Source: Candidatus Helarchaeota ASGARD archaeon Hel_GB_B (GTDB taxonomy: Archaea > Asgardarchaeota > Lokiarchaeia > Helarchaeales > HEL-GB-B). From it: 30,481 bases of DNA. Position numbers and translations under genes: made by a program. This document shows, in pieces, positions 3,442-14,399 of the stretch; within the stretch, counting starts at the first letter, position 1, and each line of letters opens with the position of its first letter. The DNA lies in the NCBI GenBank assembly GCA_005191425.1, contig SUPR01000037.1:1-30481 (forward strand), in the 5' to 3' direction. The notes beneath the pieces were generated by a model, which worked only from the letters and a program-made list of their open reading frames with translations, was not told the origin of the DNA and did no database searches.

Positions 3442-4545
3442 ATGTCTGACCAAAATACCCCTAATAATGACCAATTCACTTATGCTAAAAGTGGTGTCGA
3501 TATTAATGCCCAAAAATCAGCACATAAAATCATTGGCGAACTTATAACTAAAACATATCTATTTAGACAAGGTAAATTTGGAGAAATTATCGGTGAATAC
3601 GGTCATTATGCTGGCTTAATTGATATTGGTAATGAGTTATGTCTTGCAATGCATGTAGATGGCGTAGGCACTAAAGTAATGATAGCTCAAATGATGAATA
3701 AATATGATACAATCGGAATTGACCTTATTGCTATGCACGCAAATGACCTCATTTGTATGGGCGCCGAACCTGTTGCTCTCGAAGATTATCTTGCTATTGA
3801 GACCGTTAACAATGATGTTATCTATCAAATCATGAAAGGACTTGTTGAAGGCGCTAAACAAGCCCAAATGGCTATAATTGGCGGCGAAACTGCCATTATG
3901 CCAGACATCATTAAAGGCACATCCCCCGGAAACGGCTTAGACCTATCTGGAATGAGCATCGGCGTTGTTAATAAAAAAAATGTAATTACTGGGTCTAATA
4001 TTAAAATAAACGATACTATAATCGGTATTATGAGTTCAGGTATCCATTCTAATGGATATACTCTTGCTAGAAAAGCTTTTTTTGATCTTGCTAAATTGTC
4101 CCCTTTTGATCCACTTCCAAATTATCCTGATTTAATTGTCGGTAATGAATTATTAAAACCTACTAAAATTTATGTCCAACCTATTTTGAGCTTATTAAAA
4201 AAATTCAATGATAAAATTCACGGGCTCGCTCATATCACAGGCGGAGCTTTTACTAAATTAAATCGCCTTAGACCTCATGGACATGATTTTGGCTTCCTAC
4301 TTAACAATCTCCCAAAAGCACCCCCAATCTTTAAGGAAATACAAAATATAACCAATATTTCTGATAAAGAAATGTATAAAACCTTTAATATGGGCATCGG
4401 TTTCTGTATTATTGCTGACCCTTCCATACAAAACGAAATCATAAATCTACTCGATAATTTTAATTTCTCCTCTCTTATCATCGGAAAAATCATTAAATCT
4501 AATAAAATTATTTTGCATTTGAATGAAAATAAAATCTTTTTATAA
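3442..4545 (+). CDS. purM: Phosphoribosylformylglycinamidine cyclo-ligase (AIR synthetase)
   Basis: YAKSGVDI, DGVGTK, GGETA, SSGIHSNGY, HITGG and FNMGIG motifs. ATG at 3442 preferred over the track's TTG at 3433. Confidence 0.97.
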   Translation: MSDQNTPNNDQFTYAKSGVDINAQKSAHKIIGELITKTYLFRQGKFGEIIGEYGHYAGLIDIGNELCLAMHVDGVGTKVMIAQMMNKYDTIGIDLIAMHANDLICMGAEPVALEDYLAIETVNNDVIYQIMKGLVEGAKQAQMAIIGGETAIMPDIIKGTSPGNGLDLSGMSIGVVNKKNVITGSNIKINDTIIGIMSSGIHSNGYTLARKAFFDLAKLSPFDPLPNYPDLIVGNELLKPTKIYVQPILSLLKKFNDKIHGLAHITGGAFTKLNRLRPHGHDFGFLLNNLPKAPPIFKEIQNITNISDKEMYKTFNMGIGFCIIADPSIQNEIINLLDNFNFSSLIIGKIIKSNKIILHLNENKIFL

Positions 4546-4887
4546 TTTGAGTCCTCTATTATATCACAAGTCTAATTACAGGGAAAATGATGACCAAGTT
4601 TATACTTAGCAAATTTACTTGCGTTGAGGAAATTAAAAGCCCCCTGATTCCCTATATTCCTATACTTTTAATTTTTTGAATTCTATCCTTTTTACTTCTT
4701 CCCCTCTATCCCAACATTTACCAAACCTTTTTTTCCCAAATTAATACATTACGTTCTTTTAATTTTTTATCCTAATTAACTTGATCTATACATATTTTTT
4801 TATCTATTTTTCTGTTCAAAAAAATCGTTCAATGCTTAACTATTGATTTGGTTTGAACTTAACTATTGACTAATTTTTAAAAATAGA

Positions 4888-4917
4888 CTAAATAAAAAAG
4901 AATGAAAATAAAAAATA
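4888..4917 (-). terminator. Putative oligo-T terminator for the minus-strand radical SAM gene
   Basis: Minus-strand T-rich tract (TTTTTTATTTTCATTCTTTTTTATTT) about 40-70 nt after the stop codon; archaeal terminators are oligo-T rich. Confidence 0.4.
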
Positions 4918-4955
4918 GTTTGAACTCTATTTTAATAATATTTTTCAATTTCTAA

Positions 4956-6632
4956 TTATGACGTTTCTATTTTGGGTGGTTCTGCCTTGACTTTCTCTTC
5001 TTTTGGCTTCTCTTCAATTGAATGGTACGTAAATAATATGTTCTCAATTCTTTCTCTGTGTAATGTATTCATAGCACAAAATGGTACTCCATATACTTTA
5101 CCATCCCTAGGATCAACCCATCCGTAATGTACCAAACATCTTGAAACTCGCTCAACATCAAAATTATAGCCATCTTGGAAATGCATTAATCCTATAATCA
5201 TTGCACCCGCACCTTTACTCTGCACAAAATTTGCTGACGCATCCCATCTTGAATTTAATACCATGTCCAGGAAAAACTTCGATTTTGATAATATACCCTC
5301 TAATTTCATTGTCGATAACATGTCTAAACCCATTCTAACTTTGATTAATGTATCGTCTACTTTATTATATACTTTATCTATGTTCAGGCCAATTTCTCCT
5401 AAACCAAAATTCCCAAGTAATTTCTCAAATATTTTTGGCTTTTCTCCATATCGTCTCTCTTTTAATATATTATACCACTTTTTCGATTTCTTCATGAACG
5501 ATTTGATATTAAATACCCTATGCGTCCCTGTCATCTTTTTTGTACCATCGGGTTGATCTTCAATAAATAAGAAATTTCCAAAACCACAAATTGGATTACA
5601 TGTAAACTCTACTACTTGATTATTTGAAGCCGCCCATCCAATTATTTTAGCAAAATGTGAGATCGCTGTTAAAGGATATAACACACCTATTTCTCCATTT
5701 GTAAAGTCTTGTAACGCCTTTGCAACATGGGATGATGTTATCCTCAATTTTAACCTGTCTTCTTCACTTATTCTACCTACAAGTGCTACTGGCTGATAGA
5801 ATACCCCTACAACTACATCATTGTTGTCTATTGCAAACTGTAAAATATCGCCTATTTGATGGTCATTGATACCTTTTGCCACTGTTGGAACTAAAATCAC
5901 CCCTGAAAATCCCAATTTTCTGCAGTTCTCTATTAATTGTTTTTTAAATTTGAAAATCGGTGCACCTCTCGTCTTCTCATAAACATCCTCCGTAACTCCG
6001 TCAAATTGTAGATAAATCGATTTGGCACCTGCATCTAAACACGCTTTTAAATAATTTATGTCTTTTGCTAACCTTATCCCATTTGTAGTAATCTGTGGAT
6101 GGACATAACCCATTTTTACACATTCCCTAATAATATCAGGCAGGTCATCCCTTAATGTAGGCTCGCCTCCACTATACATAGCTACCAATGGTGGCTGAGG
6201 TTGGATTTCACTAAAGTGTTTGTAAACTTGAATGATCTCATCATATGTAGGTTCAATTTTCTCAAGATTTGGGTTCACATTTGCATTTGCAAAGCAAATA
6301 GGACAACGCAAATTGCATCTGTATGTTATATCCATCAAAACAATCGCTGGAGAACTCTTATGAAATTCACAAATACCACAATCATATGGACACCCCTCTT
6401 TTATTGGTTTTTCAGGGTGCCATCGTTTTGCATCAGAGTCCATCCTAAACGGTTGCAACCATTTAAACCAATCCGAATCAATTGACACAATATCTTTAAA
6501 TGTACCATGCTTATCACAAGTTTTAACCATATAAACTTTACCATCTTCTTCGATATAATCAGCATCAATTCTAGCTTTACATTCAGGACAAATACTCTTA
6601 GTAGATTGAATAATTGTTGCCATATACTTCAT
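4956..6632 (-). CDS. Radical SAM protein of the tetraether lipid synthase (Tes/GDGT-MAS, MJ0619) family, paralog 1
   Basis: N-terminal CPEC..TCDKHG rubredoxin-like site, GCPYDCGIC auxiliary cluster motif, CNLRCPIC radical SAM motif, GGEPT, YLQFDG, and C-terminal MHFQDGYNFDVERVSRCLVHY..PFCAMNTLHR; colinear with MJ0619 as I recall it. Confidence 0.85.
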   Translation of the reverse strand: MKYMATIIQSTKSICPECKARIDADYIEEDGKVYMVKTCDKHGTFKDIVSIDSDWFKWLQPFRMDSDAKRWHPEKPIKEGCPYDCGICEFHKSSPAIVLMDITYRCNLRCPICFANANVNPNLEKIEPTYDEIIQVYKHFSEIQPQPPLVAMYSGGEPTLRDDLPDIIRECVKMGYVHPQITTNGIRLAKDINYLKACLDAGAKSIYLQFDGVTEDVYEKTRGAPIFKFKKQLIENCRKLGFSGVILVPTVAKGINDHQIGDILQFAIDNNDVVVGVFYQPVALVGRISEEDRLKLRITSSHVAKALQDFTNGEIGVLYPLTAISHFAKIIGWAASNNQVVEFTCNPICGFGNFLFIEDQPDGTKKMTGTHRVFNIKSFMKKSKKWYNILKERRYGEKPKIFEKLLGNFGLGEIGLNIDKVYNKVDDTLIKVRMGLDMLSTMKLEGILSKSKFFLDMVLNSRWDASANFVQSKGAGAMIIGLMHFQDGYNFDVERVSRCLVHYGWVDPRDGKVYGVPFCAMNTLHRERIENILFTYHSIEEKPKEEKVKAEPPKIETS

Positions 6633-7008
6633 CTCATTATTTCAAATTTTTTTGCTTTTATAAGACCAAAATTATGTCTTTTTTTCAATCATATGATTCT
6701 AACATTTATAAATCTATACTTTATAGTTGGAAAATAAAAAAATAAACGCATTTATTTAGAAAATTTAATCTAAGAAAAATAATTGGTAAATATAACTTAA
6801 ATTAATAAAAATCTCTATGAAAAAATTATTTTTAATGTGAGTAATTAATTTAAAATTAAAACATATTTAATCAATATTTAAAACCAATTTATCTATTTCT
6901 ATTATATTAACTATTTTTTATAATAATAAAATCAAATTTATTTTTCAATTTTTTCAAGAATTTGGCAATGACAAAAGAATTTAGAAATTAAAATTACAAA
7001 TTAAATAT

Positions 7009-7638
7009 TTAATGCCTTTTATCTTTGTACCAATCAAACATATCGCGACGTAGTTTGCACATTTCTCCTGTTTGGTTATGGTAAAACACAATTCCTTCTG
7101 CAAATTCTTTAGTACCATGTCGTCTTCTAATTTCTAAGCTCCAGAGTTCTTTAAATACATTACTAACAATGTCATAAAGTTCCAAGTCATTTTTATTGGT
7201 GAAATCAAGGTTATTCCAAAATTTATAGGTATTTTTTTTTCTCAATCGAGTAAAGGGGTACCAGACATGTTGTTTTAAATGCAATGGATTATTATTAATT
7301 TTAGGGCCACAGAGTTCTCCGAAGAACTGTCCTTTACTATTTGGAGTAAAGTAATTATTATCTATTGCATATTGAATACCTTCATAGAAATATCCGTATC
7401 CTTTTTTAAAGAAGGGGATATGATTTTTTCTATTATAAATTGCTACAATTTTTTCTCCATCACAGATGACACTTACATTTGTTCCATCGATTTTCTCAAC
7501 AGCTTGGACAAAATCGGGATTAAATATCCAGCGATATTTTTCTACAATCTTTGGTGTGCAAACGTATTGACCATTTATTGTTTCTCTAATAAAAGGTGAT
7601 TCTAATTTTGGGAAATCTTGTGCATTAATCATCTTCAT
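7009..7638 (-). CDS. Stand-alone ATP-dependent RNA ligase-like nucleotidyltransferase (C12orf29/RLIG1/DUF5565- or Rnl2-like)
   Basis: Motif I EKIDGTN (adenylated Lys), motif III FGELCGPKIN, motif IV EGIV, motif V CKLRRD; 209 aa with no OB domain. Confidence 0.75.
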   Translation of the reverse strand: MKMINAQDFPKLESPFIRETINGQYVCTPKIVEKYRWIFNPDFVQAVEKIDGTNVSVICDGEKIVAIYNRKNHIPFFKKGYGYFYEGIQYAIDNNYFTPNSKGQFFGELCGPKINNNPLHLKQHVWYPFTRLRKKNTYKFWNNLDFTNKNDLELYDIVSNVFKELWSLEIRRRHGTKEFAEGIVFYHNQTGEMCKLRRDMFDWYKDKRH

Positions 7639-7745
7639 CTTTATTAATTTTGAGATTTTATTCTAATAATTTTATTTAATAAATATATTCAAAAAATTTT
7701 TATTTAAACTAAAAGTATTGTAATAGATTTATGGTCTAATAATAC

Positions 7746-7894
7746 TTCATAATCTAAATATATTTTCAATTTCAAATTTAGTATTTTTATGACCACGAAT
7801 TATTTTATTAAATGAAAAGTTATTTTAATATTTTATGAACCAGAAATATGTATTTTAATAGTCATAAAAAAAATTATTAAGTTTAAAGTCATAA
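7746..7894. promoter_or_regulatory. Array of TTATGA(A/C) heptamers in both orientations, in the divergent AT-rich intergenic region
   Basis: Copies at 7746-7752 (-), 7787-7793 (+), 7833-7839 (+), 7861-7867 (-) and 7888-7894 (-); 10-bp inverted repeat TTTTTATGAC (7784-7793) / GTCATAAAAA (7861-7870); TATTTTAATA repeated at 7821 and 7851. Confidence 0.35.
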
Positions 7895-8052
7895 TAGTTT
7901 ATTAAAAAAATATCTTATTGTGGTGATTGTCTTAAATCTATTTTGAAAATAAAAAGAATCAATAAGATCAAAAAAGGTAATATGGGTTTGTAATAAATCA
8001 ATAATTTTTAAAAAAGAGGCAGACTATTCAAATATAAAGGAAATGAAAAAAA

Positions 8053-9699
8053 ATGGTATATGAAAGAAAAACAAAATCTATTTGTCCTGAATGTAAAAAA
8101 ACTATTGATGCAGTAATTGTTCAAGAAGGAGACAAAATTTATATGCACAAGACATGTGAAGAGCATGGTTCTTTTAGTGATATAATAGCAACTGATGTTG
8201 AAACATATGTAGAAGCTCAGAAATATAGGAAATTTGGCTTTCCCCACAAAGATCCACAAATGACAATAAAAGATGGCTGTCCACATGATTGTGGGATGTG
8301 TCCAAACCATAAGTCAGCGACTACATGTGCAATGGTAGATGTAACAAACAGGTGCAACTTAAAGTGTCCTATCTGCTATGCAAACGCGGATACCGCGGGT
8401 TACATTGTAGAACCGCCTTTTGAAGATATCATAAGAATCTATAAGCATTTTAGGAGTTTAAAACCGGTGCCTCCAGTTGTTGCAATGTATGCGGGTGGTG
8501 AGCCAACTATGAGAGATGATTTACCTGAGATCACGAGGGAGTTAGTAAAAATGGGGTTCAAGCAAATTCAAGTAGCTACAAATGGAATTAGACTTGCAAA
8601 TGATATCAATTATTTTAAGAGATTAATGGACGCAGGAGCTAATGTATTATATTTACAATTTGATGGTATAGAAAGCGATACATGGATAAAAACTAGAGGT
8701 GTAGATTTATTCGAGAAAAAGAAGCAGGTAATAGAAAATTGCCGTAAAATTGGATTTAAAGGCGTTTGTTTAGTACCTACAATAGCCAGAGGTGTGAACT
8801 TTCCCCATGAAATAGGAAATATCTTGCAATTTGCTGCCGATAATGTGGACGTAGTGTCCGGGGTGATGTTTCAGCCGGTTGCTCTTTGCGGACGAATAGA
8901 GCAAAAAGATCTTTTTGATTTACGAGTTACTACCTATGATGTGTTAAATGAGATTGACAAATATACAAATAATGTAATGAGACCTTGGCGACCATTTCCT
9001 GCGTTTCAAAATCTAATGCGATTAATAGCATGGTGGGGTAGTTTAAGTGGTAAACACATAGAGCATGTGGAATTTACACCGAATCCTCAATGTGGTTTTG
9101 TCACTTTTATGCATATTGAGGAACAAGATGGGCCAAATAAAATAGTTGGTTTTAATGACATTATTGATATTGATGAAACAATAAAATATTGCGATCAACA
9201 AATGGAAAAGATCGATAATATGAAGGAGATTTCATTTTTCCAGAATTTAACGTTAACTGAATTTGGCGAAAAAGTAGGAAAAATGTTAGACAGCAGTTTA
9301 AATTGGTTAAATAAAAGAAGAGTCCAAATAGAAGGCTTATTTGAAGCAATAAAATTATTAAAAGATCCACTCAGTACATCAGCAATAATGTTGTATAAAA
9401 TGTTGTTAAATCAAAGTTGGGACAATACGAGGGATTTTCTTGTAAAAGGGAATAATATATATGTAGGTATTATGCACTTTCAAGATGAATATGATTTAGA
9501 TGTAGAACGAGTGAGTCAATGTGTTGTTCATTTTGGATATATAGACCCGAAGGATGACAGAGTAAAGCAAGTACCATTTTGTACTATGAATAATTTACAT
9601 AGACCTAGAATAGAGCGGGCATTAGCTATAAAATATGGTGGGATGAAACAACAACCAGAAAAAGAAAAAATAGTAGCAGAACCTCCTAAAATAAACTAA
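8053..9699 (+). CDS. Radical SAM protein of the tetraether lipid synthase (Tes/GDGT-MAS, MJ0619) family, paralog 2
   Basis: CPEC..TCEEHG, GCPHDCGMCPNHKS, CNLKCPIC, AGGEPT, YLQFDG, MHFQDEYDLDVERVSQCVVHF..PFCTMNNLHR; aligns end to end with paralog 1. Confidence 0.85.
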   Translation: MVYERKTKSICPECKKTIDAVIVQEGDKIYMHKTCEEHGSFSDIIATDVETYVEAQKYRKFGFPHKDPQMTIKDGCPHDCGMCPNHKSATTCAMVDVTNRCNLKCPICYANADTAGYIVEPPFEDIIRIYKHFRSLKPVPPVVAMYAGGEPTMRDDLPEITRELVKMGFKQIQVATNGIRLANDINYFKRLMDAGANVLYLQFDGIESDTWIKTRGVDLFEKKKQVIENCRKIGFKGVCLVPTIARGVNFPHEIGNILQFAADNVDVVSGVMFQPVALCGRIEQKDLFDLRVTTYDVLNEIDKYTNNVMRPWRPFPAFQNLMRLIAWWGSLSGKHIEHVEFTPNPQCGFVTFMHIEEQDGPNKIVGFNDIIDIDETIKYCDQQMEKIDNMKEISFFQNLTLTEFGEKVGKMLDSSLNWLNKRRVQIEGLFEAIKLLKDPLSTSAIMLYKMLLNQSWDNTRDFLVKGNNIYVGIMHFQDEYDLDVERVSQCVVHFGYIDPKDDRVKQVPFCTMNNLHRPRIERALAIKYGGMKQQPEKEKIVAEPPKIN

Positions 9700-9730
9700 A
9701 TTGTGGCTAAAATTTCATAATTTAATATAT

Positions 9731-9751
9731 TTCTTTTTCCATTTTTCTTTT
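9731..9751 (+). terminator. Putative oligo-T terminator for radical SAM paralog 2
   Basis: TTCTTTTTCCATTTTTCTTTT tract about 30 nt after the stop codon. Confidence 0.4.
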
Positions 9752-10110
9752 AATCTTATAAAATTATATTAATTAATTTTTAATCTCAATTATTTTTAAA
9801 ATGGTCATTAGAATATTGCTAAATTTCGTTAATAAAATTCTATTTTAATTTTAAAAACTAATTTTGATTAAATAGGTTATTAATATTCTTAAATTGGAGT
9901 TATCTTAGTATATTTGTCTGATGTAATGTTAAATTATTGGATTGAAATAATTTTTGAAGGGGAGTGAAAAATAGGGGAAAAAGTAATATAAGTAGTATTA
10001 ATGTAATATTAATTTAAAATAGGTGGTAAATAAAAGAGAATTGAGTATAGATTTACAAATATAGTTAAACAGATGAATTTTTTATTATTTTTCAATTTAG
10101 ATATCAACGA

Positions 10111-11091
10111 TCAAGGTCTATTCTTTAGATAATATTTTCCGTCAATATTTTCAACTAGGTTTTTATCAATGAGGTCTTGAAGGTATTTTAATGCCCATAT
10201 AAAATCTGTTCTCATCAATTTATAGAACCTATAATGACCGATATGAGTCCGTTCATACATAAGTGGGACAATTTTCGAGATTTTTAGGGGTCCTTTGAGT
10301 TTAAGGGCAATAAGAATTCTTTTTTCGGCTCGTTGAATACTATCGAGAAAATTGAGATAAATAGGATATTCTTCGCACCAGGGATGAGGACGGTAGCCAT
10401 GTCCACGGAAAACGAATCGGATTGAATGGTCGAAAATTTTATGAACAGAGTTTATGATATCTGAGATAGAAGTTTGAAGATAAGGAGTAAATGGAATGGT
10501 GTCTCCTGTGAACATTATTTTGGGAGGTGCATAATAAATACAGATAGAATCGAGTGAATGTCCTGGAGTATGTATAATTTCTAGTTTTACATTTCCACAT
10601 GAAATAATTTGTCCATCATATAATGGTTTAACAGATTTTGCGGGTTTGATCCTACCTTGATAAAAATGATAACCGAGTTTTATTATGTTTTGAATAATAG
10701 GGTGTCTGATAATCTTTTTATTAAGAAATGGAATGGCGTTTTCTAGGAATTCCAAGAATTCAAATTTTTTAATATCAAAATCATTAAAATCTTTGGTCAA
10801 TGGTACAATAGCTGATGGATGAGCAAGGACTTCACAATTGAATATTTCTTGAAAAAGTCCTACATTAGCTGAATGGTCGTGGTGTGTATGCGTTAAAATT
10901 ATCCTATCAATCTTATCAATACCAAGTGTCTTGAGGATTTTAAATAAATTTCTTTTAGTGAGAGTATAATATGTCCCGGTATCTATTATTGTATTAATTT
11001 CATCTTTAATGAAATAAACATTTGCATTGAGCATGGCAGTGCCAGATGGAATAAACATTGTAAAATATTTATTTATTCTATATAACTTCAT
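10111..11091 (-). CDS. Metallo-beta-lactamase fold hydrolase with a probable C-terminal winged-helix extension
   Basis: IIDTG, THTHHDH (HxHxDH), HTPGHS, FTGD and RGHG motifs; C-terminal RILIALKLKGPLKISKIV helix-turn-helix-like segment. Confidence 0.9.
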   Translation of the reverse strand: MKLYRINKYFTMFIPSGTAMLNANVYFIKDEINTIIDTGTYYTLTKRNLFKILKTLGIDKIDRIILTHTHHDHSANVGLFQEIFNCEVLAHPSAIVPLTKDFNDFDIKKFEFLEFLENAIPFLNKKIIRHPIIQNIIKLGYHFYQGRIKPAKSVKPLYDGQIISCGNVKLEIIHTPGHSLDSICIYYAPPKIMFTGDTIPFTPYLQTSISDIINSVHKIFDHSIRFVFRGHGYRPHPWCEEYPIYLNFLDSIQRAEKRILIALKLKGPLKISKIVPLMYERTHIGHYRFYKLMRTDFIWALKYLQDLIDKNLVENIDGKYYLKNRP

Positions 11092-13091: not shown

Positions 13092-14399
13092 TTATATATT
13101 AAGATCTTCAAGAATTGTTTGCGCGCATAATAAAGCAGATGCATGTGCAATATCGCCACCGATACCCGGGCCATTATAAGAATCGCCAGAAAAATAGAGT
13201 CCATCAATTGGGCTTTTAACTGAAATTCTTTTATTTCGATGAGTTGAAGTATAAACAGTAGAACCATCAACAACCGGCATAACAATTGGTCTTTTCCAGC
13301 TGATGTTTTCATTAAAGCCCGGGAACATTTTATTTAACATAGTATAGATGTTTTGAATGATTTTATCTGTTTCTTGTTTATTATTTATAATAGAATTTGG
13401 TAAGGGTTGTAAAATGGTGAAGAGTTGTTCATTGTTTGGAGCGACATTAGGGTCCAGGTTAGATGTAAAACAAGACATTGTAAATGGATTATAGGTAGTT
13501 ATCAGTCCATCAATATCTGAGACCTTTCGTTTAAGTCCGAAATCAATGGAAATACCGCAAGTAGGAGTTGTGTTTTTAGCCATATTAATTAAAGATTCTG
13601 GTAAAAGATTATTATCAATTAGAGACAGTGCATCATTTATAGGAATTGCTAAAATTATGTTTTCCGCTTTAATAGTATCATTATTAATCAAGACTCCTTC
13701 CACTTTATTATTATTTATTATTATCTTATCTATTTTTGATTTGGTCTGGATCTCGCCATTATCTTGAATTTTTTTAACTAATTCATCAATTATAAATTTC
13801 CAGCCGCCACTAGGATAGCTGGAACCTTTACCTGCATTAATAGCTTTTTTGATTCCATCAAGAAATTCCCCGGTAGACAATTTATCAATTTCATTATATG
13901 AAACGCAAAGTAAATCTGTTATAATTGTAATTAATTTCATAGTATTTTTAGAGAGATTTTTATCTTTTAACCAATCTTTAATACTAAGATTTAATAAATC
14001 ATCATTGAGTTTAATTGATAAAGCTCCTGCCAGGATCTGAGACAATTGTTCTTTTTCATTTTCATTCAATAATTTAGTATTTTGTATAGCGGAAATACTT
14101 AACGGAAGGTCATTCCATTCGTTATCCATAAACAGCTTACCTTCTCCATAATCAATGATTTGTAATTTTTGTTTGAATTGTTTTTTGAAAATTGTTGGAA
14201 TTACACCTTTTTTCGAGAACCTTATTGCATGAATACCATAATCAACGATATAACCTGGTTTATATTCAAATGAATTAGCTCTTCCGCCCAATATATTCTT
14301 TTTTTCAAAGATCTTAACTTTTAGTCCTTTATTTGCTAAAATTGCCCCAGATATTAGTCCTCCAAAACCACCACCAACAATCAATACATCGAAAGTCAA
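13092..14399 (-). CDS. FAD-dependent oxidoreductase, phytoene dehydrogenase-like (COG1233-type)
   Basis: N-terminal dinucleotide-binding VLIVGGGFGGL..FEK..LGGRA; YPSGG; C-terminal GLYFSGD..GPG; GGAGA Shine-Dalgarno before a TTG start. Confidence 0.85.
   Translation of the reverse strand: MTFDVLIVGGGFGGLISGAILANKGLKVKIFEKKNILGGRANSFEYKPGYIVDYGIHAIRFSKKGVIPTIFKKQFKQKLQIIDYGEGKLFMDNEWNDLPLSISAIQNTKLLNENEKEQLSQILAGALSIKLNDDLLNLSIKDWLKDKNLSKNTMKLITIITDLLCVSYNEIDKLSTGEFLDGIKKAINAGKGSSYPSGGWKFIIDELVKKIQDNGEIQTKSKIDKIIINNNKVEGVLINNDTIKAENIILAIPINDALSLIDNNLLPESLINMAKNTTPTCGISIDFGLKRKVSDIDGLITTYNPFTMSCFTSNLDPNVAPNNEQLFTILQPLPNSIINNKQETDKIIQNIYTMLNKMFPGFNENISWKRPIVMPVVDGSTVYTSTHRNKRISVKSPIDGLYFSGDSYNGPGIGGDIAHASALLCAQTILEDLNI

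Follow-up and report, generated by a model that had tools for sequence, protein, structure and literature searches.

The window analyzed here, a stretch of 30,481 nucleotides covering positions 1 to 30,481 of contig SUPR01000037.1 from the Asgard archaeon Candidatus Helarchaeota Hel_GB_B, carries two genes for radical S-adenosylmethionine (SAM) proteins of the tetraether synthase (Tes/GDGT-MAS) family, namely P0001 (558 aa, 4956-6632, minus strand) and P0002 (548 aa, 8053-9699, plus strand). With a probability of roughly 0.58, we consider the two to be independently functional Tes/GDGT-MAS-type enzymes, which originate from an old duplication within a Lokiarchaeia-specific clan and have diverged in their preference. 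Tes is the enzyme behind the glycerol dialkyl glycerol tetraether (GDGT) lipids; these shape archaeal membranes and are the basis of palaeoclimate proxies. A sequence-only reading of the region had proposed a two-enzyme system for lipid tailoring, composed of Tes plus a partner resembling the tetraether cross-linking enzyme Gms, or of a heterodimer, under shared divergent control. A complex, a Tes-plus-Gms pathway and a co-regulated divergent unit all appear unlikely in the light of our analysis. The pair belongs to a known family and does not represent a new system; for Methanosarcina, unequal Tes paralogs have been described before.

By homology to MJ0619, the GDGT-MAS/Tes of M. jannaschii, the [4Fe-4S] cluster of the CX3CX2C motif would cleave SAM, and the resulting 5'-deoxyadenosyl radical would take a hydrogen from the terminal carbon of a phytanyl chain in a saturated archaeal diether lipid. 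A sulfide of the C-terminal [4Fe-4S] cluster would then hold the substrate radical, and a second SAM cleavage acting on the second chain would lead to the tail-to-tail C-C bond of a biphytanyl chain. Predicted products are GDGT, GTGT (glycerol trialkyl glycerol tetraether) and/or macrocyclic archaeol; GDGT-MAS itself makes both GDGT and macrocyclic lipid.

Family membership, metal sites and fold

Both open reading frames (ORFs) are full length and, as the sequence-only reading had described, share the same four-metal-site architecture with all ligands present. A start three codons downstream gives P0001 the 555 aa with which it is called in the public record. The two proteins are 46% identical over 556 columns (E 3e-172), and each contains the N-terminal zinc ribbon PF23545 (68 bits) followed by the radical SAM domain PF04055. 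For both, the best NCBIfam model is the Tes equivalog NF045702 (cut-off 450 bits), to which P0002 scores 457.4 and P0001 429.3 bits, with alignments running from model positions 1-2 to 480-484 of 486. They also align end to end with the GDGT-MAS structure 7TOL (E 3e-102 for P0001, 8e-110 for P0002).

The ligands of the four metal sites of MJ0619 have been named previously (Lloyd 2022, PMC9433317). All 15 are kept in P0001 and P0002 and in essentially all of 140 aligned homologs, the exceptions being a few gapped or aberrant rows. At the rubredoxin-like site (CX2C...CX2H), both proteins have Cys, Cys, Cys and His in the MJ0619 C9/C12/C33/H36 columns, and the N-terminal auxiliary [4Fe-4S] site, built from three cysteines and a conserved histidine, is represented in both by a GCPxDCGxCxxHKS block. 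The CX3CX2C radical SAM motif, which is invariant across the 140 homologs, is located at 6294-6317 on the minus strand in P0001 (Cys106, Cys110, Cys113) and at 8353-8376 on the plus strand in P0002 (Cys101, Cys105, Cys108). The C-terminal auxiliary [4Fe-4S] site comprises Cys349, Met483, Cys499 and Cys519 in P0001, with the equivalents kept in P0002; the labile methionine corresponds to Met439 of MJ0619.

AlphaFold2 (AF2) models built from a 61-sequence alignment reached predicted local distance difference test (pLDDT) values of 89.7 and 90.2 and a predicted template modeling (pTM) score of 0.90, with low confidence in the Lys/Glu-rich C-terminal tail of P0002. In Foldseek comparisons, both models superpose on 7TOL and 7TOM, the structures of MJ0619, over approximately 530 columns, with template modeling (TM) scores of 0.88-0.89 normalized by the target and 0.79-0.80 by the query. 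The remaining PDB matches of both models, including SuiB, are restricted to the radical SAM core (TM about 0.3 by query). The pair therefore has the four-domain layout of MJ0619 in a full-length match, but differs from it in an identity of just 33-36%, a helical cap extended by about 40 residues, a short Lys/Glu/Pro-rich C-terminal tail and its placement in a separate clan. Three shared motifs had been quoted at first as differing from MJ0619, namely VAMY[SA]GGEPT, EFTxNPxCGF and MHFQD. All of them are present, but MHFQD is invariant across mixed Tes clades and thus not lineage-specific, and VAMY[SA]GGEPT is common to the closest subclade only; judged from the alignment, these motifs appear as features of subclade C1 (see below) or of the whole family.

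As to a possible relationship with Gms, this enzyme likewise uses radical SAM chemistry to link isoprenoid chains of tetraether lipids through a C(sp3)-C(sp3) bond. However, it belongs to another family: Gms is an AhbD-related SPASM enzyme that has two auxiliary clusters as well as an N-terminal helical domain of its own (Li 2024, PMC11186832; Garcia 2024, PMC11214058), an architecture found in neither P0001 nor P0002. SPASM-family models match only the radical SAM core of the two proteins, with 30-63 bits, far below their cut-offs. The proposal of a Gms-like partner is therefore not supported, given that both proteins fold like GDGT-MAS. A search of this genome revealed no convincing Gms candidate, the best match to the AhbD model being a 345-aa frame with 94 bits; two radical SAM frames of 408 and 422 aa were not followed. 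Another radical SAM enzyme for tail-to-tail coupling, the bacterial Mss, is set apart by the description of its authors, who call it only remotely related to Tes (Sahonero-Canavesi 2022, PMC13159169). TrsS (NF045646) resembles the pair over about the first 300 residues, comprising the N-terminal zinc ribbon, the N-terminal cluster and the radical SAM core, but the scores of 338 and 330 bits remain below the cut-off of 490 and the C-terminal half is unmatched.

Could one of the copies nevertheless catalyze a new reaction or use a new substrate, for example by coupling at a non-terminal carbon, as in the bridge of glycerol monoalkyl glycerol tetraether (GMGT), or by acting on bacterial-type ether/alkyl lipids or another polyprenyl compound? 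The clan is uncharacterized and lies apart from canonical Tes, the score of P0001 stays under the equivalog cut-off, a convincing Gms candidate was not found in the genome, and Asgard genomes have been discussed as carrying mixed sets of lipid genes (PMC13159169). Nevertheless, we regard new chemistry as rather improbable: the cofactor ligands are unchanged, no domain was gained or lost, both folds superpose on GDGT-MAS over nearly their entire length, the known GMGT synthases belong to another family, and the gene context points to no other substrate.

Age of the duplication and divergence of the two copies

P0001 and P0002 are the only Tes-like genes in the assembly (GCA_005191425.1; 3.54 Mb, 182 contigs, 93.7% complete), and a family search in 40 relatives gave between one and four Tes-like copies per genome. 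The phylogenetic relationship was analyzed with FastTree on 140 sequences and with IQ-TREE (LG+C20 PMSF) on 62 sequences; the two unrooted trees gave the same picture. Apart from one divergent extra copy in family f3, every copy from the class falls into a Lokiarchaeia-type clan, which is separated by a 100/100 branch from the canonical Tes sequences (representatives of Methanococcales and Methanosarcina, Bathyarchaeia, Thorarchaeia and bacteria). Accordingly, neither P0001 nor P0002 is placed in the clade that holds the characterized enzymes. In a literature search, we found no paper describing this clan or its paralogs, and in a profile search with clade B for cultured Lokiarchaeia the best 80 loci all came from metagenome-assembled genomes (MAGs).

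The clan is divided into at least five old subclades (A, B, C1 with C1a and C1b, and C2). C1a contains P0001 and genes from the two other families of the order (f2 and f3; support 100/99). C1b consists of P0002, its ortholog in the sister species, P0005 from a third near relative and a gene from the MAG 'Bathyarchaeota Bin_245', and is the sister of C1a (support of the union 100/97). Forcing the copies of the genus into one clade was rejected (delta lnL 104, approximately unbiased (AU) test p 0.0003), with the constrained group named after the tree had been seen. Because C1a holds f2 and f3 genes and a genus-level clade is rejected, the split between P0001 and P0002 is placed by these trees before the families of the order, which speaks against a recent local duplication. 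Thus, the earlier idea of a duplication in this lineage holds in a wide sense only; the two are the closest paralogs of each other in the genome, but the event itself is old.

Despite this age, both copies are under strong purifying selection, since their nonsynonymous divergence (dN) from the sister species (0.117 for P0001 and 0.124 for P0002, with synonymous divergence (dS) saturated) is lower than that of the flanking genes for PurB (0.20), the AIR-synthase-related (AIRS-like) protein (0.31) and the metallo-beta-lactamase (MBL) protein (0.38). Divergence between the two proteins is distributed unevenly, with 47% identity in the N-terminal metal domains, 54% in the radical SAM core, 31% in residues 331-475 and 54% in the region of the C-terminal cluster. 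The most divergent part, residues 331-475, is the helical cap, which forms the lipid pockets in GDGT-MAS. In the active site, a single difference was found: at the position of MJ0619 Tyr459, P0001 has a tyrosine (Tyr503, codon 5124-5126, minus strand) and P0002 a phenylalanine (Phe494, codon 9532-9534, plus strand). Based on the cap, which is 31% identical compared to 54% in the core, and on this Tyr/Phe difference, P0001 and P0002 probably prefer different substrates or products.

Across 1,000 archaeal homologs, Tyr459 was described as strictly conserved, and the Y459F variant of MJ0619 keeps robust activity (PMC9433317); a tyrosine is consequently not required for counting a protein to the family, and the phenylalanine of P0002 is no argument against its function. 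All 30 sequences of clade B (L011-L035 and others) have phenylalanine at this position, and the extra canonical-type copies of genomes G003 and G005 (L010 and L009) have methionine, so that the residue is not conserved in Lokiarchaeia.

A possible, though clearly less probable, alternative to diverged preference is that the two are redundant isozymes, which make the same products (GDGT and some macrocyclic archaeol) and are kept for differential expression, e.g. with temperature, pressure or growth phase. The two proteins do not differ in any catalytic or cofactor residue, the Y459F enzyme stays active, and each gene has its own long upstream spacer. In addition, several Lokiarchaeia genomes contain two to four copies and one complete chromosome in the class has a single copy, of clade B, indicating that the copy number is flexible. 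However, although the two copies separated before the families of the order did, each is better conserved than the neighboring housekeeping genes; fully redundant genes are rarely kept in the long term, and the cap over the lipid pockets has diverged strongly.

Further Tes copies were observed in the course of this analysis. The sister species (G001) carries a third paralog of subclade A at a contig end (L057 5231-5926, G001:C165), a fragment identical to the 559-aa representative P0008; using P0008 or the family model, no clade A copy was found in the present assembly, which is 93.7% complete. Bin_245 (L070/L071, WJJB01) holds three Lokiarchaeia-type copies, and another such contig occurs in a MAG labeled as 'Nanopelagicaceae bacterium' (L194); L070/L071 and L194 are probably mislabeled or mis-binned Asgard DNA. 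The extra copy of family f3 (L009, G005:C3; L010, G003:C164) lies within the canonical clade on a branch of about 1.0, shows the highest NF045702 scores (562-569 bits) and may stem from horizontal transfer; two CrtI-family genes are located within 6 kb of it in G003. In G004, a 170-aa Tes-like fragment ORF follows just downstream of a subclade A Tes gene (G004:C265, L037 3583-4092), and a 635-aa P0001-type ORF has an aberrant C-terminal region (G004:C172, L050 5470-7377); both may be broken or frameshifted copies.

Layout of the locus and lipid context

P0001 and P0002 are transcribed divergently, with 1,420 nt between their start codons. In the strict sense, however, P0002 is head to head with the RNA-ligase-like gene P0003 (209 aa, 7009-7638, minus strand), whose presence between the paralogs was confirmed by a match to Pfam RNA_ligase PF09414 (35 bits, cut-off 27). 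A divergent AT-rich spacer of 414 nt (7639-8052) separates the starts of the ligase and P0002, and on the strand of the ligase P0001 comes next, beyond a spacer of 376 nt (6633-7008). The gene order reads purB, AIRS-like (plus), P0001 (minus), ligase (minus), P0002 (plus), MBL, phosphatase (minus), with a rhomboid gene, the adenylosuccinate lyase PurB and the AIR-synthase-related protein on one side and the MBL-fold protein and a low-molecular-weight phosphatase on the other. This layout is no assembly artefact, because an independent contig from another public run (X1, record 1, 7,670 nt) spans 4000-10600 of the window in one colinear piece, with the same gene order at 98.4% identity (107 differences). 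The X1 strain has a 6-nt in-frame insertion (AGAAAA) at window position 9656, in the Lys/Glu-rich tail of P0002. GC skew changes from -0.29 over 4001-6000 to +0.25 over 8001-10000; this flip falls where the two homologous genes lie on opposite strands, and a simple coding-strand effect may explain it.

In the sister species, the P0001 ortholog (85% identical) comes after purB and the AIRS-like gene and is transcribed in their direction, and the same holds for the P0002 ortholog (83% identical) with respect to the phosphatase and MBL genes, so that each Tes gene is flipped relative to its flanks when compared with the present genome. The two contigs overlap by 78 nt at 96% identity just past both stop codons; although this overlap is short and imperfect, the orthologs are probably adjacent, tail to tail and without a ligase between them. 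In the third near relative (P0005 contig), the P0002 ortholog and the MBL gene are arranged as here, but a same-strand gene lies upstream of the P0002 ortholog. Outside the genus, none of the fetched loci contained two full-length Tes-like genes, and the clan paralogs are dispersed in the other genomes. Thus, the head-to-head arrangement is not conserved, but the pair may preserve an ancestral tandem position. We also considered an inversion switch, and rejected it: no specific flanking inverted repeats were found, and contigs from four public runs showed no supported strand-changing joints over 4000-10600, the only joints having 21-22 nt on the short side and being judged spurious.

A homolog of the RNA ligase was found in none of the 40 relatives, including the sister species, so that among 41 genomes the gene was detected in this species only. 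It is absent from all fetched Tes loci and matches phage RNA-ligase PHROGs (phrog_548, phrog_14301). The ligase is therefore probably a recent insertion between the Tes genes that plays no part in the lipid function. When k-mers were compared across the four upstream regions (those of P0001 and P0002 in each species), only AT-rich chance matches without consistent position appeared, and no upstream motif shared by P0001 and P0002 or conserved with the sister species was found. Taken together with the different orientation in the sister species and the species-specific ligase, this leaves the suggested shared divergent control without support.

The adjacency of the genes, here and apparently in the sister species, could also be read as a sign of an obligate P0001-P0002 heterodimer. 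We consider this very improbable, since GDGT-MAS was purified as a monomeric enzyme that needs no partner for activity, genomes with a single Tes copy exist in the class, and in the two other families of the order the P0001 subclade is present with no P0002-type partner.

Regarding the lipid context, a CrtI/HpnE-like FAD oxidoreductase (amine-oxidase fold) is encoded at 13092-14399 on the minus strand, 3.4 kb from P0002, and keeps this position in the P0005 contig; it could be a candidate isoprenoid-modifying enzyme. In two other families of the order (G003 and G004), the P0001-subclade Tes genes are followed in the same direction by a flavoprotein of the geranylgeranyl reductase (GGR) family (L042 3477-4871, L048 477-1880). 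These two flavoproteins score 126 and 137 bits against TIGR02032, below its cut-off of 158.8; they are different paralogs (42% identical) of a family with three to seven copies per genome in the order. The linkage resembles that of the Tes gene MA_1486 of M. acetivorans with ferredoxin and GGR, which has been published (PMC8941075) and which we observed again at a Methanosarcina locus, and would therefore lend modest independent support to a role in isoprenoid lipid synthesis. Lokiarchaeia have been reported to make biphytanyl/GDGT lipids (PMC7015854; PMC12042123). Because clan-type copies are the only ones in genomes of this class, some clan members at the least must be genuine tetraether synthases.

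A possible division of labor among Tes paralogs

Tes paralogy as such has been published, with 22 methanogen genomes containing two copies (Zeng 2022, PMC8941075). M. acetivorans provides a precedent for functionally unequal copies within one genome, as MA_1486 makes GDGT, whereas no more than traces of macrocyclic archaeol came from MA_1114 (PMC8941075). The two copies of Methanosarcina sp. UBA289, which correspond to MA_1486 and MA_1114 by synteny, are 63% identical without gaps and both have the tyrosine. The Methanosarcina pair is thus shallower; both members fall into the canonical clade, they are non-adjacent, and one lies beside ferredoxin and GGR. In contrast, the pair described here is 46% identical and adjacent, and lacks that context.

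Several points weigh against two functional enzymes with diverged preference. No member of the Lokiarchaeia-type clan has been characterized, and the activity is extrapolated across the 100/100 branch from characterized Tes. P0001 scores below the equivalog cut-off (429 vs 450). The change from tyrosine to phenylalanine need not signal a new specificity, given the active Y459F variant, and the divergence of the cap could be neutral drift. Finally, none of the flanking genes adjoining P0001 or P0002 in the window is a lipid gene.

A wider and more speculative proposal, which we consider unlikely, is that Lokiarchaeia underwent their own Tes radiation, with one to four copies per genome whose members share out the reaction, and that the Tyr-type/Phe-type pair represents one such division of labor. 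The split could be between GDGT and macrocyclic archaeol, between the first and the second coupling, or between different head groups or chain types.

The presence or absence of tes in Asgard archaea has been used to argue on the membrane of the archaeal ancestor of eukaryotes (PMC12042123), and the searchable literature treats Asgard tes as one gene. If the division of labor is true, the presence or absence of tes would be too coarse for predicting the membrane type of an Asgard archaeon. With a separate Lokiarchaeia-type clan comprising several old paralogs, which copy makes GDGT, and what role the remaining ones have, becomes a directly testable question, for which P0001 and P0002 offer a compact, intact and strongly conserved test case. 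Provided that the paralogs do divide the reaction among themselves, they would serve as handles on how the relatives of eukaryotes tune monolayer versus bilayer membranes.

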